From: Ignicoccus islandicus DSM 13165 | Lineage (GTDB): Archaea; Thermoproteota; Thermoprotei_A; Sulfolobales; Ignicoccaceae | Assembly: GCF_001481685.1 (NCBI RefSeq) | Contig: NZ_CP006867.1 | Location: 1,170,001-1,202,000 of the forward strand | Direction of reading: 5' to 3' | Length of the DNA: 32,000 nt | Shown here: positions 1,786 to 28,041 of the stretch, in pieces | How the letters are laid out: each line of letters begins with the position of its first letter | Position numbering within the stretch: position 1 is the first letter of the stretch | The notes under the pieces: generated by a model | Database searches by the model: none | What the model saw: only the letters and a program-made list of their open reading frames with translations | What the model was told of the DNA's origin: nothing | Program-made: the position numbers and the translations under genes

Positions 1786-4143
1786 TTAACCTACAACGAT
1801 TACGCTTGTAGTATACATAGATGGCCAGAAGGCCTCTTTGCTGTATGCTATTACCTTTACGGTATAGGTACCGGAGGTCCAGTTCTGAGTTTCTTCGCTC
1901 GTTATAGTTATGGTGTACTTACCGGGTGCCTTCTCCTTGGCGAAATCGGAGTAGACGAGCTTTCCGTCAGCTGAGTAGATAGCAACGAAGACCTTAGCAT
2001 CGCTTAAGGGGGTCTTGGAGTTCTTGTCGATTACGTTAACAGTTACAGTTAACTCTTGACCTCTTATCAGTAAGGGCTTGTCAGTAGTTAGAGATGTTAC
2101 CTGTGCGAACTTAACGTTCTCGTAAGCTAGGTATTCGAATTGATCTGCACTGAAGGGATATCCCTCGTTTCTGAATGCCTTAAGTATGGCTGAATCGGTA
2201 GTTGGATCGTAAGAGTCTAGGTATAGGGGTCCATTACCTATTACCATGTGGTTGTGCTTCTTTATGAAGTCTATTACAGCTTGATAGTTAGGCTTTGGCT
2301 TGGCACCAATGAGTTCGCACATCTCCTTTACTTGCTCTGGTACTACGCCCTTCTTCGCATCATCTTCAAGGTTCTTTAGAACTATCTTTACGTGGTCTGG
2401 GTTGAGGCTGTCTAGCCATTCGCCTCCCTTAGTTTCAGCTTCCGTCGGACTGAACGCCAGTTTGCTGTTTAGCACGGACTGCTCCATAGCGTATAATAGT
2501 TCCCACGGTACGCTAGGAGCTAGTACTGAAGTTGCTGTATCCGCTAGCTCGTTGGGATCGAAGTGGCTCATGTCAGTATAGATTACTATATCGGTTGGAG
2601 ACTTAACTAATACTCCCTTGAAGTTCTCTATCCAAGTGCTATAGGTACTAGCCACGTAGCTGTCATACTTGGCATCGTCCTTTCCGCTCTTCGTACCCCA
2701 CTCGGTAACTAGATATATCCAGTAGAGCATGTCACTTACTCTAACGTTCTGACCGGTATGGAATACGCCTAAGTTCCTCAGGTTTAGTTCGACAGCATAC
2801 TTAGCCTTAGTTCCAGGCTTGACGTGAACCCACTTGTGGGTCTTGTAATCGTAAGTGATGGCTTTCTCGGGAACCTCTACGTTTTCGTAGACTTTCCAGC
2901 TCTTAGCTAAGAGCGGTATCTTGTCTCCAGTGTAGGGGTTGTTCCACATAAACGGTTCAATTAGACCTTGGTGTATTATAACGCTGTAGAAGTCTTGGTA
3001 TCCACCTACAGGGTTCCAAGCCCACTTGTGTACGTACTTAGTACCTATCTTTAACTCCTTTGCATCGCCTTCGTAAGATATCATTTCGGTCCATCTGTTA
3101 CCTATTCCGGCAGCGAGGTCAACGACAACATCCTTTACGTCCTTTCCGGCAACGAAGCCATTAATCGGAGCTACCACGAATATCCTAACGGATTCTTCAA
3201 TTCCTTTCTTCACTAGTTTATTGAGGAGTTCGTCTCTTTCGGCCTTGGAGGAGTACTTACCGCTAGCTAGGGCCTTTCCTAAGTCATCCAGTTCCTTGTT
3301 CTTGTAATTGCAGAAGGTCGGTTCGCCCCATCCCGGCATGTAGCCAAAGAAGGGCGAGTACATTTGGTATACAGTACCTTCATTGTACTTAGTCATTGCA
3401 GAACTGCCCCAGCCCTCGGTGTACAGGCTCCAAGTGTACTTGCCCGGATCGCTACTGTAGACTAGTTGGTAGGCCTTCATGAAGTCTCCATATATTCTCT
3501 CAACTTTGAATCCTAACTTCTCTAAGTTAGTAGCTAACATATCGCCTATTTGCTTCCTTATCGGATCATCGCTTCTTATCATGAACTTAATAACTATTGG
3601 CTTACCTTTGTAGTACCACTTACCGTCCTTTAGTTCCGCTCCAGCCTTAGTGAGAGCGTTAGTTATCATTTCCTTAGCCTTTTCGAAGTCATACTTGAAA
3701 TTGAATTGCGCTAGCGTCTCGAGTACGTCAAGGTAGTCCGGGTTTACTGGGGACAGCGGGCTAATCATTGAGAACCCGTAACCGTTGAGGACGTTGGTAA
3801 CGACGGCTTGCCTGTCAATGAGGTAGTTTAGAGCAAACCTCACCTCTCTTATACTGAATGGGTTGAAAGGTCCGCCCATGTCTTGGGTAGGGCACGGATT
3901 CACTAGTATGTCGTCCATACCACCTAGCGCTAAGTAGACCTTAACGTTCGGGTTCTTTTGCAACTGGGTTATCATGTATGGCGGAATGCCCCAGAAATAC
4001 ATGTCTAATTTTCCGTGAAGAACGTCTTGCACTGCCAGCGAAGCGTCCGTATACCTCTTTATAACTTCCATTTCGGTCTTTGCGCCTGGTAAGGCTAGCG
4101 TTAGGAAGGCAAAGGTAAGAAATAAGGCAAGTACCTTCTTCAT
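1786..4143 (-). CDS. Extracellular solute-binding protein, family 5 (oligopeptide/dipeptide-type ABC substrate-binding protein) with an extra C-terminal beta-rich domain
   Basis: The ORF 1786..4179 was trimmed to the internal ATG at 4143, which gives a signal-peptide-like N-terminus MKKVLALFLTFAFLTLALPGAKT. The body has SBP_bac_5-like segments (NPFSIREVRFALNYLIDRQAVVTNVLNGYG). A TATA-like aaatattta lies at about 4183-4191. Confidence 0.75.
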   Translation of the reverse strand: MKKVLALFLTFAFLTLALPGAKTEMEVIKRYTDASLAVQDVLHGKLDMYFWGIPPYMITQLQKNPNVKVYLALGGMDDILVNPCPTQDMGGPFNPFSIREVRFALNYLIDRQAVVTNVLNGYGFSMISPLSPVNPDYLDVLETLAQFNFKYDFEKAKEMITNALTKAGAELKDGKWYYKGKPIVIKFMIRSDDPIRKQIGDMLATNLEKLGFKVERIYGDFMKAYQLVYSSDPGKYTWSLYTEGWGSSAMTKYNEGTVYQMYSPFFGYMPGWGEPTFCNYKNKELDDLGKALASGKYSSKAERDELLNKLVKKGIEESVRIFVVAPINGFVAGKDVKDVVVDLAAGIGNRWTEMISYEGDAKELKIGTKYVHKWAWNPVGGYQDFYSVIIHQGLIEPFMWNNPYTGDKIPLLAKSWKVYENVEVPEKAITYDYKTHKWVHVKPGTKAKYAVELNLRNLGVFHTGQNVRVSDMLYWIYLVTEWGTKSGKDDAKYDSYVASTYSTWIENFKGVLVKSPTDIVIYTDMSHFDPNELADTATSVLAPSVPWELLYAMEQSVLNSKLAFSPTEAETKGGEWLDSLNPDHVKIVLKNLEDDAKKGVVPEQVKEMCELIGAKPKPNYQAVIDFIKKHNHMVIGNGPLYLDSYDPTTDSAILKAFRNEGYPFSADQFEYLAYENVKFAQVTSLTTDKPLLIRGQELTVTVNVIDKNSKTPLSDAKVFVAIYSADGKLVYSDFAKEKAPGKYTITITSEETQNWTSGTYTVKVIAYSKEAFWPSMYTTSVIVVG

Positions 4144-4220
4144 GCCAATGACACCTTCTCTCAGTAAACGTCCATTCAACGAAATATTTAAGAATATCTC
4201 TTAGGCGATAGAACACACCG

Positions 4221-5338: not shown

Positions 5339-5634
5339 ACTTCTTCTTTCTTCAGTATCTCTTCCACAAGCTCTAATTTATTGTGAAGTTCTTCTAATAA
5401 CTCCACAGGTACCTTCTCCATTTTTAGTACTACTTCGTTTCCATTGATCTCTACTAGTCCGAATGCTTTAAGCTCAGTAACGAACTCTTCAATCTCAGGG
5501 TAAAGCTCACCTAGAATTTCGACCCCATTTTTAGAGAGCTTGGCGACGATCTCACCGAGCTTCGTTAGGTCGATTTTTCCGTTAATTAAGAAGAGTATTA
5601 CAGCTAGCTCCCTCGGCGTTACAATTATTCGCAC
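5317..5634 (-). CDS. Hypothetical small protein, possibly winged-helix-like
   Basis: The track ORF 5317..5682 starts at a TTG that sits inside a TATA-like box (minus-strand ATTATAA, plus 5672-5678). The in-frame GTG at 5634 is about 40 nt downstream of that box and fits a short-leader transcript. The sequence has no recognisable catalytic motif and an acidic helical C-terminus. Confidence 0.4.
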   Translation of the reverse strand: MRIIVTPRELAVILFLINGKIDLTKLGEIVAKLSKNGVEILGELYPEIEEFVTELKAFGLVEINGNEVVLKMEKVPVELLEELHNKLELVEEILKKEEVYISTTN

Positions 5635-5765
5635 ACTGGTCCCTTTATCTAAGTAGTCTCCCTCGCACCCCTTATAATCCAAGGAACCCCCGTTATCACA
5701 TTACCCATTTAAGAACCACTAACTGTAAGACGAAAGTATCACTTTACAGAATCGAACCATCAAAC

Positions 5766-5772
5766 TTTATAA
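5766..5772 (+). promoter_or_regulatory. TATA box candidate for the taw1 gene
   Basis: TTTATAA at 5766-5772 in an AT-rich intergenic region. It lies about 40 nt upstream of the GTG at 5811 and 67 nt upstream of the ATG at 5839. Confidence 0.4.
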
Positions 5773-5810
5773 TTTCCGAAATGCGAACGACGAGGTGATG
5801 AGAAATATCG

Positions 5811-6848
5811 GTGAAAGCGGACGCTATTGCGCAAATAATGGATAGATTAAGGAAAGCTGGTTACCACATAGTTGGAACGCACTCTGCAGTTAAGAAGTGT
5901 CATTGGACCCACGTGGCGCTAACTCAGAGGAGGTTCTGCTATAAGTGTAAGTTCTATGGAATAGCTTCTCACAGATGTCTTCAAATGACTCCAGCCGTCA
6001 TATGGTGCTGGTTGAGGTGTCTGCATTGTTGGAGAGCCGAGCCGGGTGACTTGGGAGTTCAATGGGACGACACGGGACTGCCGGTAGTCGATGATCCGGA
6101 GTTTATAGTAGAGAAGACGATCGAAGAGCAGAGGAAGATAATAAGCGGTTACAAGGGTCACCCCAAAGTTTCCCCAGAAATGTTTGAGGAAGCTATGAAC
6201 CCAAAGCACGTTGCAATTAGCCTTTCTGGAGAGCCTACGTTGTATCCTCTCCTTAGCGACCTAATTGAAGAATACCATAAGAGAGGGATGACTACCTTCC
6301 TCGTAACTCACGGTGTCAGGCCTGACGTACTGGCTGAGTTAAATCCCGAACCAACGCAACTATACTTAAGCTTAGAAGCGTGGGACGAGAAGAGCTTCAA
6401 GGAATTCAACCGGCCAATCTTGCCGGGTCTATGGAACGCAGTCTTAACTTCCCTAGACCTACTCCCCAGTTTCTCTTCTCCTACGGTAATCAGAGTAACT
6501 CTCGTGAAAGGCTTTAACGACAAACCCGAGGCGTTGAAGGGGTTGGCTAAGTTAATAGAAAGAGGATACCCAACGTACGTTGAAGTTAAGGCATACATGA
6601 ACGTAGGTTACTCGAGATATAGGTTGACGAAAGAGAACATGCCTAGGCATAATGAGGTTAGGGAGTTCGCCGAGAAGCTAGCTGAAGAGATAGGCTATAA
6701 AGTCTTGGATGAACAAAGATCCAGCCGCGTAGTTTTGCTCTCGAGACTAGATAAGCCCATAAGAGTGGGTGAAGGTTGTCCGGGAGGCAATGCTGGAGAG
6801 GACTTACCGGAAGGCGAAGAATACAGGATGAGTGAGAAAATAAAATAA
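5811..6848 (+). CDS. taw1: tRNA 4-demethylwyosine synthase (radical SAM, Taw1/TYW1 family)
   Basis: Contains CYKCKFYGIASHRCLQMTPAVIWCWLRCLHCWR (auxiliary cluster Cys plus a radical-SAM CxxxCxxC-like LRCLHCW) and AISLSGEPTLYP, as in archaeal Taw1. The start is a GTG at 5811; an ATG at 5839 is an alternative. Confidence 0.85.
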   Translation: MKADAIAQIMDRLRKAGYHIVGTHSAVKKCHWTHVALTQRRFCYKCKFYGIASHRCLQMTPAVIWCWLRCLHCWRAEPGDLGVQWDDTGLPVVDDPEFIVEKTIEEQRKIISGYKGHPKVSPEMFEEAMNPKHVAISLSGEPTLYPLLSDLIEEYHKRGMTTFLVTHGVRPDVLAELNPEPTQLYLSLEAWDEKSFKEFNRPILPGLWNAVLTSLDLLPSFSSPTVIRVTLVKGFNDKPEALKGLAKLIERGYPTYVEVKAYMNVGYSRYRLTKENMPRHNEVREFAEKLAEEIGYKVLDEQRSSRVVLLSRLDKPIRVGEGCPGGNAGEDLPEGEEYRMSEKIK

Positions 6849-6865
6849 AAAGTATTGAGAAATTT

Positions 6866-6882
6866 CTATTTTAATAAAATAG
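6866..6882. terminator. AT-rich perfect palindrome between convergent genes (possible bidirectional terminator region)
   Basis: ctattttaataaaatag is a perfect 8+1+8 palindrome. It provides T-runs on both strands between the taw1 stop (6848) and the cdc48 stop (6885). Confidence 0.3.
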
Positions 6883-6884
6883 TG

Positions 6885-10474
<3,590 letters not shown>

Positions 10475-13910: not shown

Positions 13911-15197
13911 GTGCTTACAGTGATTGTTAGAAGCAAGAGAGACGCGGACGCATTGAGAAACATGATTAAGAACTATAGGAGCGATTGGGGAATTGAAGTA
14001 GAGACTTTGAAAGGTAAGAGAGGTACTGACGTTATAGATGCCGTGAAGGAGCTCGTCTCTGATAACAAGTTCTATTTGGTTTTACTAGGTCGCGAAGAGG
14101 CGGACGTAATTAAAGAGCTCTCCGACTCGACTCCCCCTAATGTTATCGTTCACGGAATCAGAAAAAAGAGAATAAGGAACACTCGCTTAAGTGAACTCAA
14201 TTGGGAACTAGAGGTAGCCAAGAGTCAACCGAGATTGTGGATTGAGTGGAGCGGAGATACGCCATTTATAGCTAAGAAGTACGTAAGAGGAGAGCCTGGA
14301 ACGGACGTCTTCTTGGGCTGGGGTCTCTGGTGGAAGACCTTAGGCTTAGGAGAGCCTTCACACAAAGGTTTCCTAGTAAAGAAAAGCGCGGACGGGGTCC
14401 ACACAGTAATAGCTGGTGGTAGAGCAGTAGCTCTCACCGAAATAACTGACAATAGAATACCTCAAACCGTTCTGCTAGGCGAAGTAAGAGGCTTCGAGCT
14501 TAAGGAGTTCGCTAACTTGTCGCGTAACGTAATACGCAGCTTCGTAAGAGGAACAGCTAAGCTGTTCGAAGGATGTGAGAAAGCCATAGTTCCTTGGAGC
14601 GGTGGTAAGGATAGTACGGCCGCTTTGCTAATAGCTAAGGAATACTGTGACGAAGTCGAAGCAATATACGTTGATACAGGAGTTGACATGGGTTTGAACA
14701 AGTACTACATCGAAAAAATTGCCAACGAAATGAACGTGAATTACGAAGTAGTTAGAGCTCCTGTTAAAGAGAATATAATGGAACTGGGATTTCCTTCTCG
14801 TGACAATAGATGGTGCACTGGATTGAAAATAAAGGCGCTGGAAGATGCAATAAAGAGGAGAGGCAAGGTCAAAGTCGTAGTAGGAGATCGCGATGCCGAG
14901 TCCATCTCTAGGTCCCGAAGGTGGTTTGAGAGGGAGTGGGAAGGGGTTGCAGAGGTCCTCGCTCCCCTGAAGCTTTGGAGCGGTGCAATGGTTTTAGCTT
15001 ACTTACTAAGCGAGAATGTACTTCCTAATCCGCTCTATGCTCTAGGCTTCTATAGACTCGGTTGCTACGTTTGCCCGTTCCTTAGGGCGTACGAAAGGAA
15101 GTTATTAAGGGAGGTAAGGGCAGCTAAAATAGGTGCCGACGAGGACCTCTTAAACCAGTTCTTGGGGAGGCACGAAGGCTATGACTTGGGGATGTAA
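13911..15197 (+). CDS. PP-loop ATP pyrophosphatase of the PAPS-reductase family with a roughly 220-aa N-terminal extension
   Basis: Has the PP-loop VPWSGGKDSTAALLIA, then VGDRDAES and a C-terminal Cys pair (RLGCYVCP). The N-terminal 220 aa have no motif I can name. GTG start. Confidence 0.75.
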   Translation: MLTVIVRSKRDADALRNMIKNYRSDWGIEVETLKGKRGTDVIDAVKELVSDNKFYLVLLGREEADVIKELSDSTPPNVIVHGIRKKRIRNTRLSELNWELEVAKSQPRLWIEWSGDTPFIAKKYVRGEPGTDVFLGWGLWWKTLGLGEPSHKGFLVKKSADGVHTVIAGGRAVALTEITDNRIPQTVLLGEVRGFELKEFANLSRNVIRSFVRGTAKLFEGCEKAIVPWSGGKDSTAALLIAKEYCDEVEAIYVDTGVDMGLNKYYIEKIANEMNVNYEVVRAPVKENIMELGFPSRDNRWCTGLKIKALEDAIKRRGKVKVVVGDRDAESISRSRRWFEREWEGVAEVLAPLKLWSGAMVLAYLLSENVLPNPLYALGFYRLGCYVCPFLRAYERKLLREVRAAKIGADEDLLNQFLGRHEGYDLGM

Positions 15198-15960
15198 GGC
15201 TTTCAAGGAGAAGATACTTACTAAATTGAATCAGATGAGCCTAGATCTTGCAAGAGAGGGCTCGCGGAACAACGTTCAATTAATTGAAGTCATTAGAGAC
15301 TTGGGTGACCAAGTAGATCCTTCCGTTCCTTGCTCCCTCAGGAGCTGGGAATTTTGGAGGAAGGCATACCTCGAATTACGTAACGCGAATTCGGACGAAA
15401 ACGAAGCTCGAAAGTTAAGAGCGCTCGTCGAGTACCTCAACGAAGTCAACGCGTTCGACATTAAATGGATCTCTGTAGTGAATTTAGTATCCTTAATAAC
15501 TCTAACCACTACGGTTCTCCTCACAGGACCTTCGATACCCAGTTACTTGGGCTTAGTAGCACTATTAATGAGTAAGATCTATCCCCTTGAGACTCTTATA
15601 TTTTCATCCACAATCATACCAACTTCCATATTAATTCATAACATTGAAATGTATCCCCTCGCCTCAATTATCGCTCTCTTAAACGCGTTCTCGATCTTTG
15701 GAGTGTTCGGAGAGAAGCCGAAATATAGGGAAGTGAAGACAACGCAGAAACTCGAAATTAAAGTAAGTGAAGATGAGATCTTAACTATGCTCAAGCAAGT
15801 ATACGGTAAAGAAGCAAAGGACATACTTGACTTCCTAGTGACTCAGCTAATAGTAGAGGGCTACACTAAGGATGAAGCGCTATCTGAGATATGGAGGAGG
15901 TTAACTGGAGAGGAGACCTCAAGAGGACATGAGAGCAGCACAGAGGTCTCTCATGCTTAG
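15181..15960 (+). CDS. Hypothetical membrane protein with soluble N- and C-terminal helical regions
   Basis: 259-aa ORF that overlaps the PP-loop gene by 17 nt. It has a central block of hydrophobic segments. It overlaps the convergent CBS gene by 42 nt. Confidence 0.45.
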   Translation: MTWGCKAFKEKILTKLNQMSLDLAREGSRNNVQLIEVIRDLGDQVDPSVPCSLRSWEFWRKAYLELRNANSDENEARKLRALVEYLNEVNAFDIKWISVVNLVSLITLTTTVLLTGPSIPSYLGLVALLMSKIYPLETLIFSSTIIPTSILIHNIEMYPLASIIALLNAFSIFGVFGEKPKYREVKTTQKLEIKVSEDEILTMLKQVYGKEAKDILDFLVTQLIVEGYTKDEALSEIWRRLTGEETSRGHESSTEVSHA

Positions 15961-21533: not shown

Positions 21534-22097
21534 ATGAAGAGAGTCTTAATTGTAGGTGCAGGCGCACTGGGGAGCTGGACGGCCGAAATACTCTCCAGAA
21601 AGGGTCCATTTTCTTTCTATATTGTTGATCCCGATAGAGTGGAGGAAAGTAATCTAGATAGGCAACTCTTCTACCCGCAAGACGTGGGAAAATACAAGGC
21701 TGAAGTTCTAGCACAAAGAATTACCCTTATGGGAAACGACGCGCAAGCAATAATTTCAAGGATAGAGGATGTTGAAGGAATAAGCGCTGACATAGCATTG
21801 GCCTTAACTGATAACATCCCTAGTAGGATATTCGTAGAAGAAAGGTATTTTCCTACTATACACGGTATGGTGAGACCCGAAGTAGGCATGGTCTTGATGA
21901 CTACAAACGAAGTAAAGCTCTCCAATCTAATGACGGAAGGTAAACACACGGGCGCTCAAGACGTTTCCATGGTTGTATCGGTAGCCTCATTGGTCGCGAG
22001 GCTAGCTCTAGATTACTTAATTAGAGGCGATACGTCCAACGCGGGGAAGTTATTTCTCTTATCTAGATATTCACTCGAAGTCTTGGATCTTGAGTGA
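21534..22097 (+). CDS. Minimal ThiF/MoeB-family (E1-like) adenylation domain protein
   Basis: 187 aa with VLIVGAGALGSWTAEIL (GxGxxG), VDPDRVEESNLDRQ (the DxDxVxxSNLxRQ motif), GKYKAEV and ALTDNIPSR. It has no CxxC zinc pairs and no C-terminal domain. Confidence 0.8.
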   Translation: MKRVLIVGAGALGSWTAEILSRKGPFSFYIVDPDRVEESNLDRQLFYPQDVGKYKAEVLAQRITLMGNDAQAIISRIEDVEGISADIALALTDNIPSRIFVEERYFPTIHGMVRPEVGMVLMTTNEVKLSNLMTEGKHTGAQDVSMVVSVASLVARLALDYLIRGDTSNAGKLFLLSRYSLEVLDLE

Positions 22098-22110: not shown

Positions 22111-22120
22111 CTTATATAAA
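22111..22120 (+). promoter_or_regulatory. TATA box candidate for the multi-wHTH gene
   Basis: cttatataaa at 22111-22120 overlaps the first ATG of the track ORF (22120). It lies about 30 nt upstream of the second ATG at 22150, which favours 22150 as the true start (leaderless or short leader). Confidence 0.45.
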
Positions 22121-22149
22121 TGCTTTATTTTTCAGCATGGAGATTAGAA

Positions 22150-23937
22150 ATGCTACTAAAAAGAGAATATTTGGAAATGTTAGAGGAAGTGGGAGACAAG
22201 GAACTAGATATTAACGAGTTCGTAAAGGGCGAATACGAAGAAAGGGAAAGGTTAATAAAGAATCTGTTGGCCTTAGAGCTCCAAGACTTGATTCGCCCGA
22301 AGGATGCGAGGAATCCAAGGATTTTCGTCCTAACCGAACACGGTAAGAAAGTTCTAGATATATGGAAAAGGTTAGGGAAGCCTCAAGTTGAGAGGTGGTT
22401 GGACTCTAGGATACACATGATGCTATGGACTTTATGGAAGACTAAAAGCGAGGCACCTAAGGACTGGAAGACGCCGCTATTAGAGAGGAACTTCGTCAAC
22501 GAGGAAGGCAAGTTAAGGGATGAAGCAATAGAGTTGCTAAAGGTGTTTGAACCAGGAATTAGAGCAAGGAAAATCAGGATTACGAGGGACTTGGGCGGAG
22601 TCTTAGCGAGAATAGCACCCGGTCCGGCTACCACTGCAGCTCTTAAGAACCATCCCGAAGACGCCTTAGACTTACTAGAAGCAATGGATGTAATAGTTTA
22701 CAGTGCCCCCGATGGGGGATACTACGCGCTAACTAGGTTAGGAAGGTATTTACGAATGGCTATTAGGGAACTTCGTCCTGTTGCCATGGAGTACATTCTA
22801 GTTAATATGAAAATTATAGAGCTAGTCAAGAAGTTGATCGAAGGAAAGGAGCTTACTGATCAAGAGAAATTCGTCCTAATGAACCTAGGATACATGACCG
22901 TTTCAGAACCAACCAAGGCTGCCAAGTTGCTCTATAAGGCGATAGAGGAATTAGAGAGAGGAAAGTATTGGGAGACCTTCACCATAGGTCTAACTAGAGT
23001 GGATCAATGGGTCATGAAGATGATCGATTACCTTTGGAAGAAAGCGGAAACCAATCCGGAGCTCAAGCCGACCAAGTCATTGATAGTAGATTGGTTCGAG
23101 AGGCACTGGAAAGACATAGGAATGGACGAAGAAACTCGCAAGGAGCTGTTGTTCTCGGACTACACAGTTGGTATATCTCTCTATAGGTTAGAAGCATTGG
23201 AATTAGTCGATAGCTATGAAGAGAAATCGAAGCTCATATACCAATTAACAGACTACGGGAAACAGCTCTTAGAGGTCATCGAAAAAGGGAAGATCGTCGA
23301 AATACCTACTTACGCAATAAGACCTTTAGTGTACGCTGACAGAGGTTTGCCGCCGTTTAGATCATGGATAGAGGAGGCCGCAAAGGAAGGCCTGCTTGGT
23401 CCAGGGGGCATGGGGAGAAAGGGCAGGAAGTTGGCACACTTAGCCAGAGTAGTGAAAAGAAGGCCGCTGCTTACTAGGATGGAATTACTTGTACTCCAAA
23501 AGATGTTACCAAGCGGTCAAGTACAGAAAATAGAAGAGCTAGTGAAGAAGTTCGAAAACCCGGACGAAGCCAGGGCAGCTCTATACTGGCTGGAAATGTG
23601 GGGTGCCGTTAACTTCTACGATAACGATTACGTAGAAATAACTGAAATTGGAGAGAACTTGAAGAAGGCGTTGGTAGCCACGCCTCCCGGAATAGCTACG
23701 CCCGTACACCCACACTTCTTGAGGGTCCTAGAAGTGATAAAGGAGCTCGGAAGTTACGAAGACATTGCTGAGATAGTAAATAGGACTAGGCTTACGTTAG
23801 GTATAGTGAAAGACGCCATAGTAGTGGCTAGGGAAGCGAAGCTACTAGGTAAGAAGGATCTAACTGGCGAAGGCGAACTTCTACTAGAGACGGTAAAGGA
23901 GATACAAGCCCACAGAGAGACTATGGCAGAGGAGTAA
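22150..23937 (+). CDS. Large soluble protein built from repeated winged-helix-like modules, function unknown
   Basis: At least five segments follow the pattern hydrophobic helix, then L-x-x-L/M-G/D-hydrophobic, short beta hairpin, then (L/I)T-x-x-G-x-x-L. Examples are LLALELQDLIRPKDARNPRIFVLTEHGKKVL, LLEAMDVIVYSAPDGGYYALTRLGRYL, LYRLEALELVDSYEEKSKLIYQLTDYGKQLL, LYWLEMWGAVNFYDNDYVEITEIGENL and AREAKLLGKKDLTGEGELLL. No catalytic motifs were seen. Confidence 0.55.
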   Translation: MLLKREYLEMLEEVGDKELDINEFVKGEYEERERLIKNLLALELQDLIRPKDARNPRIFVLTEHGKKVLDIWKRLGKPQVERWLDSRIHMMLWTLWKTKSEAPKDWKTPLLERNFVNEEGKLRDEAIELLKVFEPGIRARKIRITRDLGGVLARIAPGPATTAALKNHPEDALDLLEAMDVIVYSAPDGGYYALTRLGRYLRMAIRELRPVAMEYILVNMKIIELVKKLIEGKELTDQEKFVLMNLGYMTVSEPTKAAKLLYKAIEELERGKYWETFTIGLTRVDQWVMKMIDYLWKKAETNPELKPTKSLIVDWFERHWKDIGMDEETRKELLFSDYTVGISLYRLEALELVDSYEEKSKLIYQLTDYGKQLLEVIEKGKIVEIPTYAIRPLVYADRGLPPFRSWIEEAAKEGLLGPGGMGRKGRKLAHLARVVKRRPLLTRMELLVLQKMLPSGQVQKIEELVKKFENPDEARAALYWLEMWGAVNFYDNDYVEITEIGENLKKALVATPPGIATPVHPHFLRVLEVIKELGSYEDIAEIVNRTRLTLGIVKDAIVVAREAKLLGKKDLTGEGELLLETVKEIQAHRETMAEE

Positions 23938-25295: not shown

Positions 25296-26084
25296 TCAGT
25301 AAGTTTTTTCAATTAAGTATTTCAAGAATTCTCTTGATGACTCTAATTTTTTGACTTCGTCTGAGCACAATGGACATCCTTCGTTTGTGACGTCGTTAGC
25401 TGAAATCATTGAATAAGGTGCGTTAACGTTAACGTGAATTTCGCTGGGCCATTCCTTACCATTTAGCAAGAATAGAACTGCTTGGACGCTAATTGCCGCC
25501 ACTACTTCAGCCAAATTAGGATCTGTGTAGTACCTTACCTTTTCATCCCATATTCTCTCACATATCGGACAATAACCTTCCTTCAGTACCTTAACATACC
25601 CCCTATAGCTTCCGATGCCTACGTTCACGAACTTCTTGTTATGCTTTACTGCTAGAGCAAGCAAAACGGCCCTGGGCGCGAGTACGTCGAACGAGGTTAC
25701 CACTATATCTACCTTTTTAACTAGCTCGTTAACATATCCAAAGGACTTATCGCTCCAAAGCCCTGAAGGAGTTGGTACTTCAAGTTCAATACCTATTAGC
25801 TTTGTCCAAGGGTGGAACTGTTGAAGCCTAGACGTAAGGGTCGTTGCTTTGTTAAGGCCAACTTCATCCGTATGGAAACATTGATAACCTACGTTCTCAA
25901 CGCCTACCTCATCGAAGTCTATAACGTATATTTCCTCAAAGTTAAACCTGGCCAAGTTCCGAACTATCCTGGAACCTAAAGTTCCCGCACCACCAACGAG
26001 AACTCTCTTCCCTTCAACGCTTAATCCAGATTCCTTTAAGTAATGTTGAGTCCTTTCGTAGAATCCTCTCGGCCGAGCGTCCAC
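25296..26084 (-). CDS. Minimal E1-like ThiF/MoeB-family adenylyltransferase with a tetracysteine zinc site
   Basis: 262 aa with FYERTQHYL...KRVLVGGAGTLGSRIV (GxGxxG), VIDFDEVGVENVGYQ (a degenerate DxDxVxxSNLxRQ), GLNKA, and TSFDVLAPR (the Mg/ATP Asp...Arg). There are two CxxC pairs, CPIC (res 172-175) and CPLC (res 237-240). It starts at a GTG at 26084 and overlaps the JAB gene by 49 nt. Confidence 0.8.
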   Translation of the reverse strand: MDARPRGFYERTQHYLKESGLSVEGKRVLVGGAGTLGSRIVRNLARFNFEEIYVIDFDEVGVENVGYQCFHTDEVGLNKATTLTSRLQQFHPWTKLIGIELEVPTPSGLWSDKSFGYVNELVKKVDIVVTSFDVLAPRAVLLALAVKHNKKFVNVGIGSYRGYVKVLKEGYCPICERIWDEKVRYYTDPNLAEVVAAISVQAVLFLLNGKEWPSEIHVNVNAPYSMISANDVTNEGCPLCSDEVKKLESSREFLKYLIEKTY

Positions 26085-26869
26085 GTCGTGCCCCTAATTA
26101 CTGCCTTTTCTATATCTAAATTGAAAACTTTCACATCGTATAGGACATTCAAGTGCGGTGAAAGTTTCAAATACTGAAACTCGCTCTCTCCCACATTAAC
26201 GTAATAGGACGCGATGAATATGAAATCCTCTAAAACTATTTCTCCCGTCGTTCCTATCCTAAAAGGAATGCATTTTTTCGAAGGTAGCGTACACTCGCTT
26301 CCGTCTATATCTACGGTGCTTCCGTCGCGATATACCTTAGCGAAGCCCTTCTTCCTAGTACCGATACCAACCACTTTGTTTACGTGCACCTTAAACTTAT
26401 CGTATCCTATCGTCATTTGGGGCACTGGTTCATATATAGCCAAATCTAAGCACAAGGAATTACCGGCATGAGTTGGAGAGACTATTCCAAATACCCTAGG
26501 TCTCCCTGGAACAGTAGCCAGAATTTGAGTTTTCAACGCTAAGGTCATTGTAGCTATGTCTATTGCCGATGGCGATGGGGCTATCCCGCAGTGATAATGA
26601 ACAGTTACTAAGTCTTCCGGCTTGGCGTCCGTGGTTCTTACGCTTACGGGCGTTTTTTCAATTGCTCTCATGGGTCTAGCGTTGGTCACATATATTTCCT
26701 TATCGTTCATAAATCCCATGAAGCTCACTACGTCCTCCGATGCGTCCTTGGATAAGTTGAAGCAATTGTTTTCATTAGCCTTCTTCAGTAGCAATTCGAA
26801 TACCGATGGTACGATCTTTAATCTATGGAGCGTTACCGTCGCAGAGTCCAACGTCCGTGCATAGCGCAT
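26036..26869 (-). CDS. JAB/MPN+ (JAMM) metalloisopeptidase-like protein with an uncharacterised C-terminal domain of about 165 aa
   Basis: Residues 91-104, HYHCGIAPSPSAID, are a perfect H-x-H-x7-S-x2-D JAMM motif (nt 26558-26599). The upstream acidic residue is in SEDVVSFMGF (E45). ATG start at 26869. The C-terminal half is beta-rich with no motif I recognise. Confidence 0.75.
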   Translation of the reverse strand: MRYARTLDSATVTLHRLKIVPSVFELLLKKANENNCFNLSKDASEDVVSFMGFMNDKEIYVTNARPMRAIEKTPVSVRTTDAKPEDLVTVHYHCGIAPSPSAIDIATMTLALKTQILATVPGRPRVFGIVSPTHAGNSLCLDLAIYEPVPQMTIGYDKFKVHVNKVVGIGTRKKGFAKVYRDGSTVDIDGSECTLPSKKCIPFRIGTTGEIVLEDFIFIASYYVNVGESEFQYLKLSPHLNVLYDVKVFNLDIEKAVIRGTTWTLGREDSTKGLNIT

Positions 26870-27578
26870 CCGTCATTACCTCCAGGGGATTTTCTTGTTG
26901 ACTAATATAATCCCAAGACTCCACGTGCATTATGCATGCGTTAACGTTTAACATTTGAGCTATGCGTTCCAGAGAGGTAGAGAGCAACGGTATTTCCTTG
27001 GCTTTCGTTAAGAAATAGTCGCTAGTTAGATTATAGAAGCAGCATTTGTGCCATATCTTCGGAGTTACGTAAATCAATGGTTCGGTCTTTGGATAACCTA
27101 TGCTGGGTAAAACGAAAACTGTGTACGTCGAGTTTTGTGCACAATAGTCCTTCTTCTTACATTTTCTATATGCGTAAATTCCCTTGCCGGGATCTTTTCC
27201 ATCTATGGGAACAAATTGCTTAGTTAGTTTACTGGACGAGAAATAATGAGATCTGAACGTCTCAACTGCGTCCTCTAAGGGATCGTAATCTCGAAAAAAA
27301 GATCCATAAGGTTCTTCAATTGAAGCGTACCAAACGTTTCCGTATTTTTCTATAAGGGATCCCACGCTCTCGGATCTATATGTGACATCTATCTCGGAGC
27401 CGTCAACTCTCTTAACGTAAAGTTTTATTCTCTGAGGGGCGATTCCCAGCCTCTTAGCTAACTTGTCCCTAACCGAGCTAGGTAGTTCTCCGTAATCTAC
27501 CTTCAAGTTGTGTTCCGAGAGCTCGGGCTTTATCAATATCGAGAGTATTAGCTCACCGCTCTTATTATTAGTTGACAT
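26823..27578 (-). CDS. Putative fusion of an N-terminal ubiquitin-like (beta-grasp) domain and a UBC/E2-like core
   Basis: Residues about 8-88 (ELILSILIKP..HNLKVDY..SSVRDKLAKRLGIAPQRIKLYV...SVGSLIEKYGNVWYASIE) follow the ubiquitin secondary-structure and sequence rhythm; compare the ubiquitin GIPPDQQRLIF. Residues about 100-230 have an E2-like layout: helix, beta meander, then TYTVFVLPSIGYPKTEPLIYVTPKIWHKCCF. This resembles F-x-hydrophobic-x-F-P-x-x-YP-x-x-PP-x-hydrophobic-x-F-x-T-x-I-x-HPN...C. The Cys spacing is non-canonical. Operon context with JAB and E1 supports the call. Confidence 0.5.
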   Translation of the reverse strand: MSTNNKSGELILSILIKPELSEHNLKVDYGELPSSVRDKLAKRLGIAPQRIKLYVKRVDGSEIDVTYRSESVGSLIEKYGNVWYASIEEPYGSFFRDYDPLEDAVETFRSHYFSSSKLTKQFVPIDGKDPGKGIYAYRKCKKKDYCAQNSTYTVFVLPSIGYPKTEPLIYVTPKIWHKCCFYNLTSDYFLTKAKEIPLLSTSLERIAQMLNVNACIMHVESWDYISQQENPLEVMTDALCTDVGLCDGNAP

Positions 27579-27597: not shown

Positions 27598-28041
27598 TTA
27601 TGGACCTCTCCTCATTTCCGCTTCCGCTTCAATCGTGCTTATACTAGATTTCAGTTCGTCAACTAATTGCAATATCCTCTTAAGCTCTTCTTCAGGCAGT
27701 TTAACTTTCTCTAGGAACTCTTCTCCGTCTGCAGTTAACCTAAGCTTGTTCCTTCCAGGTACTTTTTCTATTAGGTTTAGATACAGCATGTCCATTACGT
27801 CTTGGTGTAGTTCGTTGCTGCCAATGACTTTTCCTATTTTTACAAACTGATAACCTATGTCGAGTCCCTTTTCCTTCATTTCGTACACTAGTTGAGTAAG
27901 GCCCTTCTCTGAAACGTTGCCTAAGTGCTTTATGATATGTAGTAATATCAACGCCTTCTTGTTCTTCTTAACGTCGTCTAGGGTGACTACTTGCCTAGAT
28001 ATTATCTTTAATTCCTTGCTCTTGCCCGTTGGCGAGGACAC
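27598..28041 (-). CDS. Small protein, winged-helix-like N-terminal part plus a C-terminal coiled-coil; first gene of the E2/JAB/E1 operon
   Basis: 147-aa ORF with a GTG start at 28041. Its stop is 19 nt upstream of the Ubl-E2-like ATG. The segments ALILLHIIKHLGNVSEKGLTQLVYEM...IGYQFVKIGKVIGSNELHQDVMDMLYLNLIE resemble wHTH / phage-associated antitoxin-like folds. The C-terminus EELKRILQLVDELKSSISTIEAEAE is helical. Confidence 0.4.
   Translation of the reverse strand: MSSPTGKSKELKIISRQVVTLDDVKKNKKALILLHIIKHLGNVSEKGLTQLVYEMKEKGLDIGYQFVKIGKVIGSNELHQDVMDMLYLNLIEKVPGRNKLRLTADGEEFLEKVKLPEEELKRILQLVDELKSSISTIEAEAEMRRGP

Follow-up and report, generated by a model that had tools for sequence, protein, structure and literature searches.

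A candidate precursor of a ubiquitin-like conjugation system encoded with a JAMM protease and an E1-like enzyme in Ignicoccus islandicus

Does a single gene of the archaeon Ignicoccus islandicus DSM 13165 encode both a ubiquitin-like modifier and the enzyme that would conjugate it and, if so, how would the modifier be released and activated? The question arises from a stretch of 32,000 nucleotides (contig NZ_CP006867.1, positions 1,170,001–1,202,000 of the forward strand, hereafter the window). An open reading frame (ORF) located on the minus strand at positions 26823–27578 encodes a protein of 251 residues, 100% identical to the I. islandicus protein EYM_06865, for which the annotation gives only "hypothetical protein". 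Nothing significant was returned when EYM_06865 was searched against Pfam, NCBIfam, PADLOC and the PDB sequences, and no publication describing its family was found in a search of the literature. A first reading, made from the sequence only, had proposed a ubiquitin-like (Ubl) domain fused in cis to an E2-like core and encoded next to a JAB protease. We are highly confident that a Ubl-E2-like fusion is present here within a JAB/E1 operon. Our comparative analysis makes it reasonably likely, in addition, that EYM_06865 serves as the precursor in a minimal archaeal system of ubiquitin-like conjugation, encoded in a conserved cluster with a JAMM protease and an E1.

Organization of the Cluster and Relatives

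The gene belongs to a tightly packed cluster on the minus strand, in the order p147, Ubl-E2 (EYM_06865), JAMM protease and ThiF-family E1:

27598–28041, minus strand: p147, the first gene of the cluster, 147 residues, with the appearance of a winged helix followed by a C-terminal helix
26823–27578, minus strand: Ubl-E2-like fusion protein, proposed precursor (EYM_06865, 251 residues; AlphaFold2, Foldseek, alignments)
26036–26869, minus strand: JAMM/MPN+ metalloprotease, 277 residues (EYM_06860; JAMM motif alignment)
25296–26084, minus strand: E1-like adenylating enzyme, 262 residues, with one ThiF/MoeB/UBA5-type domain (Pfam ThiF 4.7e-25)

The p147 and Ubl-E2 genes are separated by 19 nucleotides, the Ubl-E2 and JAMM protease genes overlap by 47 nucleotides, and the JAMM protease and E1 genes overlap by 49 nucleotides.

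A word-indexed search identified 11 Ubl-E2 proteins, all Ignicoccus-like. Only two further real relatives, P0031 (205 residues) and P0034 (228 residues), emerged when 1.84 billion representatives were searched exhaustively with an HMMER profile. A weak match to DUF6831, seen in one member of the family only and below the cutoff (E 0.0066), was dropped. The four-gene cluster was found in I. hospitalis, in I. pacificus, in those loci of metagenome-assembled genomes (MAGs) that extend far enough, and also at the locus L016, which represents a more remote lineage; it was conserved and chromosomally syntenic in all three Ignicoccus genomes examined. The Ubl-E2, JAB and E1 genes were adjacent or overlapping in I. 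islandicus, I. hospitalis, I. pacificus, four MAG loci, L016 and L001. The latter is an unassigned metagenomic contig on which P0034 precedes a JAB-like protein that shares the C-terminal extension of the window JAMM protease, and this in turn precedes a ThiF E1 with 30% identity to the I. islandicus E1. Both Asgard MAGs (Wukongarchaeum, Hodarchaeota) and related metagenome contigs contained genes of the P0031 type, and the gene behind each of them encodes one protein of about 600–660 residues that fuses JAB, the same extension and E1. The overall identity between distant clades was only 22–27%. The contexts of P0034, P0031 and L016 therefore indicate that the linkage of Ubl-E2, JAB and E1 is conserved across four deeply diverged clades. 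A mobile or viral origin was discarded, as no relatives of the Ubl-E2 family were found among the IMG/VR viral contigs and the downstream flank of the I. islandicus cluster is in synteny with that of I. hospitalis.

The Ubiquitin-Like Domain

27318–27554, minus strand: ubiquitin-like beta-grasp domain, residues 9–87 (AlphaFold2 topology, Foldseek against PDB, sequence profile)

The full-length AlphaFold2 model, built on the 11-sequence family alignment, had a mean predicted local distance difference test score (pLDDT) of 85.6. Strands were predicted at residues 9–16, 21–28, 51–56, 62–64 and 82–87, and helices at residues 33–44 and 72–79. The resulting beta-beta-alpha-beta-beta-alpha-beta topology of residues 9–87 is that of a beta-grasp. 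When the full-length model was compared with the PDB using Foldseek, the N-terminal domain dominated the matches, which included UFM1, SUMO1, NEDD8, ubiquitin variants, the Ubl domain of TBCE and the Caldiarchaeum ubiquitin (target-normalised template modelling (TM) scores of 0.64–0.78, E values of 1e-4 to 1e-5, probability 1.0). The highest TM-scores, 0.73–0.78, were those of UFM1, and no ThiS or MoaD structure was present among the top 50 matches. A sequence profile of the Ubl alone retrieved ubiquitin from the PDB with a single-domain E value of about 0.015, pairing GI(A/S)P..RI(K/R)L with GIPPDQQRLIF of ubiquitin. The best match of the family to the Pfam ubiquitin model stayed below threshold (E 0.11, 12.7 bits versus a cutoff of 25.4). 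The identity of the Ubl is solid because the predicted fold, the structural matches and the profile match to ubiquitin all point to it.

The ubiquitin-like alternation that the sequence-only reading had described at about residues 8–88 is thus real. Its comparison of GIAPQRIKLY (residues 45–54) with the ubiquitin segment GIPPDQQRLIF is exactly the pairing made by the profile, and the sequence strings and residue numbers that it gave, including SVGSLIEKYGNVWYASIE at residues 71–88, were all correct. It had also reported the lack of a free-standing Ubl ORF ending in Gly in the window, and this holds down to ORFs of at least 40 residues. Four such ORFs end in Gly, none of them a plausible Ubl gene: one encodes 797 residues (1786–4179), far too long for a Ubl, and each of the remaining three runs antisense to a larger ORF, which in two cases is a confirmed gene.

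The Junction after Gly92

27303–27317, minus strand: C-terminal tail of the Ubl, E88-E-P-Y-G92, with the proposed JAB cleavage point after Gly92 (conservation)
27282–27302, minus strand: linker, residues 93–99 (low pLDDT, indels)

The last strand of the Ubl (residues 82–87) is followed by the five-residue tail EEPYG and then by SFF (EEPYG/SFF, residues 88–95). The tail is flexible and ends in Gly, as in activated modifiers, and since Gly92 is internal to the polypeptide its activation requires prior cleavage. The junction reads EEPYG/S in all 11 Ignicoccus-like sequences, EEPYG/V in L016, FEQPYG/S in the Asgard members and KSFG/T in L001. Gly92 is therefore universal, being kept in the four clades. 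Directly after G92-S93 the conservation stops and indels of 0–7 residues appear in the alignment; the pLDDT falls below 50 at residues 92–95. The predicted TM-score (pTM) was 0.66 for the full-length model compared to 0.88 for the C-terminal domain alone, a drop which indicates that the Ubl and E2-like domains have no fixed orientation relative to each other.

Two candidate junctions had been put forward from the sequence, after KYG at residue 80 and after PYG at residue 92. The first was rejected, as Gly80 forms a turn inside the predicted fold, between helix 72–79 and strand 82–87. The second stands, with an invariant Gly92, a disordered and variable linker, and a JAB that is adjacent to the E1 or fused to it. 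In the Type I Bub system of Citrobacter, the JAB domain of BubCD was shown experimentally to cleave the Ubl-E2 fusion BubAB immediately after a conserved Gly (PMC11601596). The comparative evidence leads us to think that the precursor is probably cleaved by the JAB protease after Gly92.

It could be argued that the Ubl is never released and serves as a docking or regulatory domain in cis, for example by recruiting the E1 or the JAB protein or by occupying the backside of the E2, the true modifier being a SAMP, Urm1 or ThiS-type protein encoded elsewhere. Such an arrangement needs no free Ubl in the window, and many proteins bear non-cleaved Ubl domains, those of TBCE and USP being among the Foldseek matches. 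We nevertheless consider it unlikely. Among clades with an overall identity of 22–27%, Gly92 and the aromatic-Gly tail do not change while the residues after them vary freely, a JAMM protease is in every case encoded alongside the E1 or fused to it, and an E1 requires a free C-terminal carboxylate. Moreover, BubAB, the sole comparable fusion to have been tested, is cleaved.

The Fold of the E2-Like Domain

26826–27281, minus strand: diverged UBC (E2/UEV/RWD)-like domain, residues 100–251 (AlphaFold2, Foldseek against PDB and BFVD, hhalign)
27078–27095, minus strand: YPxxxP flap motif of the UBC/RWD fold, Y162-P-K-T-E-P167 (alignment)

Residues 94–251 were re-predicted alone by AlphaFold2 with a pLDDT of 91.6 and the pTM of 0.88 given above. 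The order of elements is helix, helix, four strands and then helices, with a helix at residues 100–113, strands at residues 134–140 and 151–157, the Y162-P-x-x-x-P167 flap, and a strand at residues 168–172. The N-terminal helix, the four-stranded antiparallel sheet and the flap that characterize the UBC fold are all present, with weak scores. Each of the top 50 entries found by Foldseek in the PDB contains an E2 or UEV protein, the best single match being the UEV-like domain of VPS37A, with UbcH5, Ubc9, E2-25K, Rad6 and Mms2 among the others. The E values were 0.09–0.5 and the TM-scores 0.3–0.4; no PDB match had an E value below 0.09, and UFC1 was not among these 50. In BFVD, an independent structure library, the top seven matches were E2s of giant viruses (best probability 0.89, TM 0.49/0.64, with 0.64 for the target). 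Using hhalign against five canonical E2s, an E value of 0.021 and a probability of 2% were obtained. Among 13 members of the family, one matched Pfam UQ_con (best E 0.12, below threshold) and none matched Prok-E2.

The flap residues Y162, P163 and P167 were invariant in all 13 aligned family members, and also in L016. A hidden Markov model (HMM) of canonical E2s placed the flap in the YPxxPP register in every member with a printed alignment. In this register the succession of strand, Y162-P-x-x-x-P167, strand and H177 corresponds to the strand, Y-P-x-x-P-P, strand and His of the HPN motif in canonical E2s. On the strength of the models, residues 100–251 form a probable, strongly diverged UBC-like domain. 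The predicted structures came out as expected for a Ubl fused in cis to an E2-like core, with a beta-grasp in the N-terminal part and a diverged UBC-like domain in the C-terminal part.

A Putative Non-Canonical Active Site

27039–27050, minus strand: H177-K178-C179-C180, with C179 as the proposed nucleophile (C179 invariance, HPN register)
26925–26936, minus strand: C215-I-M-H218, with H218 as the proposed partner of C179 (conservation, Asgard alignment)

The motif following the flap reads W176-H177-K178-C179-C180, and further Cys residues are found at positions 140, 146, 215, 240 and 246. Only C179 and H218 are kept within the E2-like domain in every clade, as is Gly92 outside it; a His at position 218 is retained in the Ignicoccus-like sequences, in L016 and in P0034. 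The other candidates are more variable. H177 is replaced by Phe in L016 and C180 by Val in the Asgard member. C215 is a Gly in P0034 (L001) and is absent in P0031 (Asgard), and C215, C240 and C246 were not found outside the Ignicoccus-like clades. The tight H-x-C-C arrangement pointed out by the sequence-only reading is real and non-canonical. C215 is excluded as a universal catalytic Cys, and a role of H177 as an essential HPN-type His is weakened.

The H-P-N motif of canonical E2s is replaced by H-K-C in I. islandicus, by R-F-Q-C in L016 and by H-Q-C in the Asgard members, and the register from Y162 to H177 is that from YP to the H of HPN. The canonical catalytic Cys, 7–8 residues past HPN, is also missing, and in the Asgard member a His is present at this position. 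The Asgard member keeps the short loop, and its segment HQCVDTvTGRIHF pairs with the E2 consensus HPnvde.kGsiCL. It follows from this alignment that the Cys of the family occupies the position of the HPN Asn and the His that of the canonical catalytic Cys. A first hhalign result, in which a 7-residue deletion placed C180 on the canonical Cys, was abandoned, the loop-retaining Asgard sequence being preferred as a guide (C179 on Asn, His on Cys). In Ignicoccus, C179 and H218 are separated by an insertion of about 30 residues, composed of strand 180–184, two helices and strand 214–217. H218 probably occupies the canonical catalytic-Cys position, judging from the aligned sequences, and the out-and-back geometry of the insertion should bring it next to C179. 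In canonical E2s one pocket is lined by both the Asn of HPN and the catalytic Cys, so that the Cys/His pair represents a plausible relocated active site. On balance, the pattern of conservation leads us to favor a catalytic role for C179 and H218.

Cys140, Cys146, Cys240 and Cys246 are invariant in the Ignicoccus-like clades and in L016, and elsewhere in the family are absent or placed differently. Their role in these hyperthermophiles may be structural, through a zinc site or disulfides.

A second alternative would make the C-terminal domain an inactive UEV/RWD-like module that binds Ubl, with structural Cys residues and with conjugation performed independently of an E2, as in SAMPylation by the E1 alone. 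The VPS37A UEV-like domain as the best single PDB match, the missing HPN motif and canonical Cys spacing, and the restriction of the conserved Cys 140, 146, 240 and 246 to Ignicoccus-like clades, which suggests a structural cluster, would all fit such a module. C179 and H218, however, are present in all clades, including those devoid of the other Cys residues, a pattern that is catalytic rather than structural, and they map to the two positions lining the canonical E2 active site. An inactive module is quite improbable for these reasons.

The JAMM Protease and the E1

26558–26599, minus strand: JAMM zinc-binding motif, H91-Y-H93-CGIAPSP-S101-AI-D104 (sequence and alignment)
about 26036–26420, minus strand: C-terminal extension of the JAMM protease, about 130 residues (approximately residues 150–277), conserved in all clades
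25515–25559, minus strand: crossover-loop region of the E1, residues 176–190, ERIWDEKVRYYTDPN, with no Cys and with the invariant Y185-Y186 (alignment of nine E1s)

The adjacent JAB protease announced by the sequence-only reading is borne out by the 277-residue neighbor of EYM_06865, which carries an intact JAMM motif (E45...H91-x-H93-x7-S101-x2-D104). D86, H91, H93, S101 and D104 were invariant in 18 JAMM homologs, and E45 was nearly so. The window protein had no Pfam match, and the homologous JAB module of the Asgard fusion passed the Pfam Prok-JAB model (30.3 bits versus a cutoff of 25). A BLASTP comparison of the window JAB with the JAB-like protein of L001 gave 2e-4. The C-terminal extension had no Pfam or PDB match; in the Asgard fusion it lies between the JAB and E1 modules. 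We propose that the JAMM enzyme is both the processing and the deconjugating protease of the system.

The conserved start of the JAB gene lies 47 nucleotides inside the Ubl-E2 gene (26823–26869), and its N-terminus, M[RP]YARTLDSATV, was found in 13 of the 18 homologs. Within the overlap a 24-nucleotide block, CTATGCACGGACGTTGGACTCTGC, is identical in six Ignicoccus-like genomes, all synonymous sites included, which points to a dual-coding constraint. The deposited start of EYM_06860 (252 residues) is, from these comparisons, probably 25 codons too late. In I. pacificus (L004 5683–6482) the JAB homolog matches in two frames, with residues 1–124 and 123–265, which reflects a frameshift or pseudogene or else a sequencing error.

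The E1 gene follows the JAB gene in every locus. The I. islandicus protein has a ThiF Rossmann fold signature, with the Pfam match listed above, the GxGxxG motif as GGAGTLG and the Mg-binding Asp, and it possesses two CxxC pairs of zinc cysteines, C172/C175 and C237/C240. Its matches in PDB sequence searches were the SUMO E1, ATG7, TcdA, Cap2 and the NEDD8 E1. The catalytic Cys of the crossover loop, typical of true E1s, is absent from the Ignicoccus E1. The alignment of nine E1s showed that the Cys-bearing crossover segment present in the Asgard relative is deleted in the E1s of the Ignicoccus-like clade, L001 and L016, in which Y185-Y186-T-[ND]-P is invariant. The Cys of the Asgard E1 aligns with that of the UBA5 segment '...GVCAASLP...', which we take to be the catalytic Cys250. 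The E1 domain of the Asgard JAB-E1 fusion had its best sequence matches to solved structures with Uba1, UBA7 and UBA6 (E down to 2e-16, for Uba1).

The least probable alternative, a very doubtful one in our view, would have the cluster serve sulfur transfer by a carrier of the ThiS, MoaD, CysO or QbsE type, in which the JAB would expose the Gly, the Ubl would be adenylated and converted to a thiocarboxylate and the Cys-bearing C-terminal domain would be a persulfide relay and not an E2: the small ThiF/MoeB-type E1 devoid of a catalytic Cys, the JAB trimming of sulfur carriers known from the CysO/Mec+ and QbsE/QbsD systems, and a PAPS-reductase/PP-loop gene just upstream in I. hospitalis would fit it, but in I. 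islandicus this PP-loop gene is unlinked to the operon, the cluster has no gene for a rhodanese or for cofactor biosynthesis, the Asgard E1 has a UBA5-type Cys and an E1 domain that best matches the eukaryotic Uba1, and the Ubl resembles ubiquitin, UFM1 and SUMO, with no ThiS or MoaD in its top 50 matches.

Proposed Mechanism and Its Significance

We propose the following model for the conjugation system. The 251-residue protein would be made as a Ubl-E2 fusion and cut by the JAMM protease after Gly92, giving a Ubl of about 92 residues ending in EEPYG and an E2-like enzyme of about 158 residues. The ThiF-type E1 would adenylate Gly92. As the Ignicoccus E1 has lost the Cys-bearing crossover segment, Cys179 would accept the activated Ubl with the adenylate as its direct donor or with the invariant Tyr185/Tyr186 as an intermediate stage. 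Cys179 would work with His218, and the Ubl would then be passed to lysines of target proteins. The JAMM enzyme could also reverse the modification. This model retains from the sequence-only reading the fusion, the non-canonical site and the PYG92 junction, and gives up the KYG80 junction; neither C215 nor H177 is universal.

Several points weigh against the model. No target, E3 or free Ubl was identified. The scores of the E2 assignment are weak in each of the comparisons reported above (Foldseek E 0.09–0.5 and TM 0.3–0.4, hhalign probability 2%, UQ_con E 0.12), and the canonical E2 sequences used for hhalign and for the E2 HMM were entered by hand. The proximity of C179 and H218 is deduced solely from the logic of strand pairing and from the Asgard alignment. 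In the E1, Tyr67 (nucleotides 25884–25886) replaces the conserved Arg of the N-x-x-R-Q motif, which reads E-N-V-G-Y67-Q. The Ignicoccus-like, L001 and L016 clades have this Tyr without exception, and the Arg is retained in the Asgard relatives; the replacement could mean that adenylation is altered or lost.

Ubl-E2 fusion precursors processed by a JAB have been demonstrated recently, in bacterial defense operons (Type I Bub) only. What would be new here is that archaea follow this logic too, with a family of proteins devoid of a Pfam or NCBIfam model and of any functional annotation, with an unusual site (Cys at the HPN Asn, His at the canonical Cys) and in a chromosomally conserved cluster that has an Asgard relative. 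An earlier survey concluded that archaea lack E2s outside the eukaryote-like operons of Caldiarchaeum and Asgard (PMC2948915), and the present family bears on whether this is really so. The Asgard E1 with a UBA5-like Cys and the Ignicoccus E1 without it constitute a natural pair of variants. Since the Ignicoccus proteins are thermostable, they would offer a compact system in which to study how the chemistry of E1-to-E2 transfer evolved.

A bolder and quite speculative extension, to which we give little credence at this stage, is that the inverted E2 site marks an ancient, vertically inherited lineage of archaeal ubiquitination, shared by Desulfurococcales and by Hodarchaeal and Wukongarchaeal Asgard, in which the Cys-less Ignicoccus E1 would hand the Ubl to the E2 as an adenylate or as a Tyr oxyester. 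If this is true, the evolution of E2s would have reached an independent or intermediate solution here. It would also open the possibility of a kinship with the non-canonical eukaryotic cascades of the UFM1 or ATG type rather than with the bacterial Bub and Bil defense systems.

Other Genes of the Cluster and Its Surroundings

The p147 family is confined to the Ignicoccus-like lineage, with 61–73% identity across every Ignicoccus-like locus. At L016, an ORF of 148 residues occupies the position of p147, and its sequence is evidently similar by eye. No Pfam or NCBIfam match was obtained for p147, and the matches in PADLOC were weak and of the WH type only. This protein may be a regulator or a target of the system.

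I. hospitalis, I. pacificus and several MAGs encode a fast-evolving membrane protein of about 265 residues (p265) just upstream of p147, and in I. hospitalis (L002 3490–5601) its gene is preceded by a gene of the PAPS-reductase family. In I. islandicus, the counterparts of this pair lie on the opposite strand at a distance of about 10 kb, at positions 13911–15197 and 15181–15960 (plus strand), which indicates that a rearrangement split the pair from the operon. Adjoining the cluster in the former species and about 10 kb off in the latter, p265 is probably not a core part of the system.

The window contains a second, very short ThiF-family protein of 187 residues (21534–22097, plus strand; Pfam 1.1e-22), whose NCBIfam matches include the PRTRC-system ThiF and a 6A-MBL Cap2-like protein. 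Its gene is immediately followed by that of a DUF505 protein of 605 residues (22120–23937, plus strand) with several winged-helix matches. These two genes are a separate E1-like pairing.

On L001, the region 5562–8838, past the core genes, encodes a second JAB protein, a canonical Prok-JAB of 143 residues, a Cys-rich protein of 147 residues, a small membrane protein and a HerA-like DUF87 ATPase; the Cys-rich protein is possibly a zinc-finger or E3-like factor. The Asgard JAB-extension-E1 fusion (L009 5360–7339; also L013 and L015) lies in a conserved, housekeeping-like neighborhood.

Comparison with Known Systems

The ubiquitin operons of Caldiarchaeum subterraneum and Asgard (PMC5654768, PMC6043591) are similarly archaeal, use an E1-E2 cascade and process a Ubl pro-form with a JAMM enzyme, as proposed here, and the Caldiarchaeum ubiquitin is among the structural matches of the Ubl. 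These operons encode ubiquitin, E1, E2, a RING E3 and Rpn11, with a canonical UBC E2 carrying HPN-x-Cys and a free ubiquitin with Gly-Gly and a short extension. The Ignicoccus cluster, in contrast, has its Ubl in one polypeptide with an E2-like domain whose active-site residues would be relocated, and it encodes no E3.

The UFM1 system (UBA5, UFC1, UFM1, UfSP) shares with the cluster a minimal single-domain E1, a non-canonical E2 devoid of HPN and a precursor whose mature end is a single Gly. UFM1 itself has the best TM-score with the Ubl, and the E1 Cys of the Asgard relative aligns with that of UBA5 GVCAASLP. This is a resemblance only, with no sequence-level relationship: UFC1 is absent from the top 50 matches of the E2-like domain, and the enzymes that process UFM1 are Cys proteases instead of a JAMM protease.

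In the bacterial BilABCD systems (Types I and II), which carry out ISG15-like conjugation, the order of functions is likewise Ubl, E2, JAB and E1, the JAB pre-processes the Ubl to expose its Gly, and the E2 is non-canonical, with a His that comes after the catalytic Cys in the description of the 6d type (PMC1779556). The Bil Ubl is a separate gene, however, and BilD is a large E1 with the IAD-AAD-CYS organization, compared to the single-domain E1 of 262 residues found here. No profile match to Bil-type families was obtained.

The Type I Bub (6E.1) operon (PMC11601596) is composed of BubAB, a Ubl-E2 fusion, BubCD, a JAB-E1 fusion, and BubE. No sequence relationship between the two systems was detected, as judged from profiles and PDB matches and not from the BubAB sequences themselves. 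The cluster proteins and the relatives scanned had no Pfam match to Prok-E2, Multiubiquitin or DUF6527. The latter domain, that of BubE, was looked for in the products of the four cluster genes, in the 187-residue ThiF, DUF505 and tRNA_bind proteins, in those of six genes at 10.9–17.7 kb and in six proteins of the relatives, and was found in none of them. BubCD was not present among the top 60 PDB matches of the Asgard E1, nor among the PDB matches of the Ignicoccus E1. Membership in the Bub or Bil systems, or in CBASS, was rejected: there is no profile match for the Ubl-E2 or the JAB protein, and Bub and Bil membership fails because of this, because DUF6527/BubE is missing, because the nucleophile would be a Cys and not a Ser, and because the E1 is small with a single domain.

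Other differences separate the cluster from Type I Bub. The JAB and E1 are separate overlapping genes in Ignicoccus and are fused only in the Asgard relatives, and the Ignicoccus JAB carries an extra C-terminal domain. The E2 nucleophile would be a Cys working with a His, whereas BubB has a Ser-x-His and oxyester chemistry. The host is an archaeon and the context is chromosomal and syntenic, with no defense island. The similarities are nonetheless extensive. Both systems have an N-terminal Ubl fused to a diverged E2 and a JAB/JAMM peptidase in the same operon, with cleavage after Gly shown for Bub and proposed here, and the Asgard relatives share the JAB-E1 fusion architecture. The E1 is in both cases small, of the homodimer type and devoid of the Cys. 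The Bub E1s use an essential Tyr of the crossover loop (PMC11601596), and the invariant Tyr pair in the loop of the Ignicoccus-like E1s might be equivalent to this residue, Y370 of BubCD; in the Asgard relatives a Cys is found instead. Type I Bub is the functionally closest known system.

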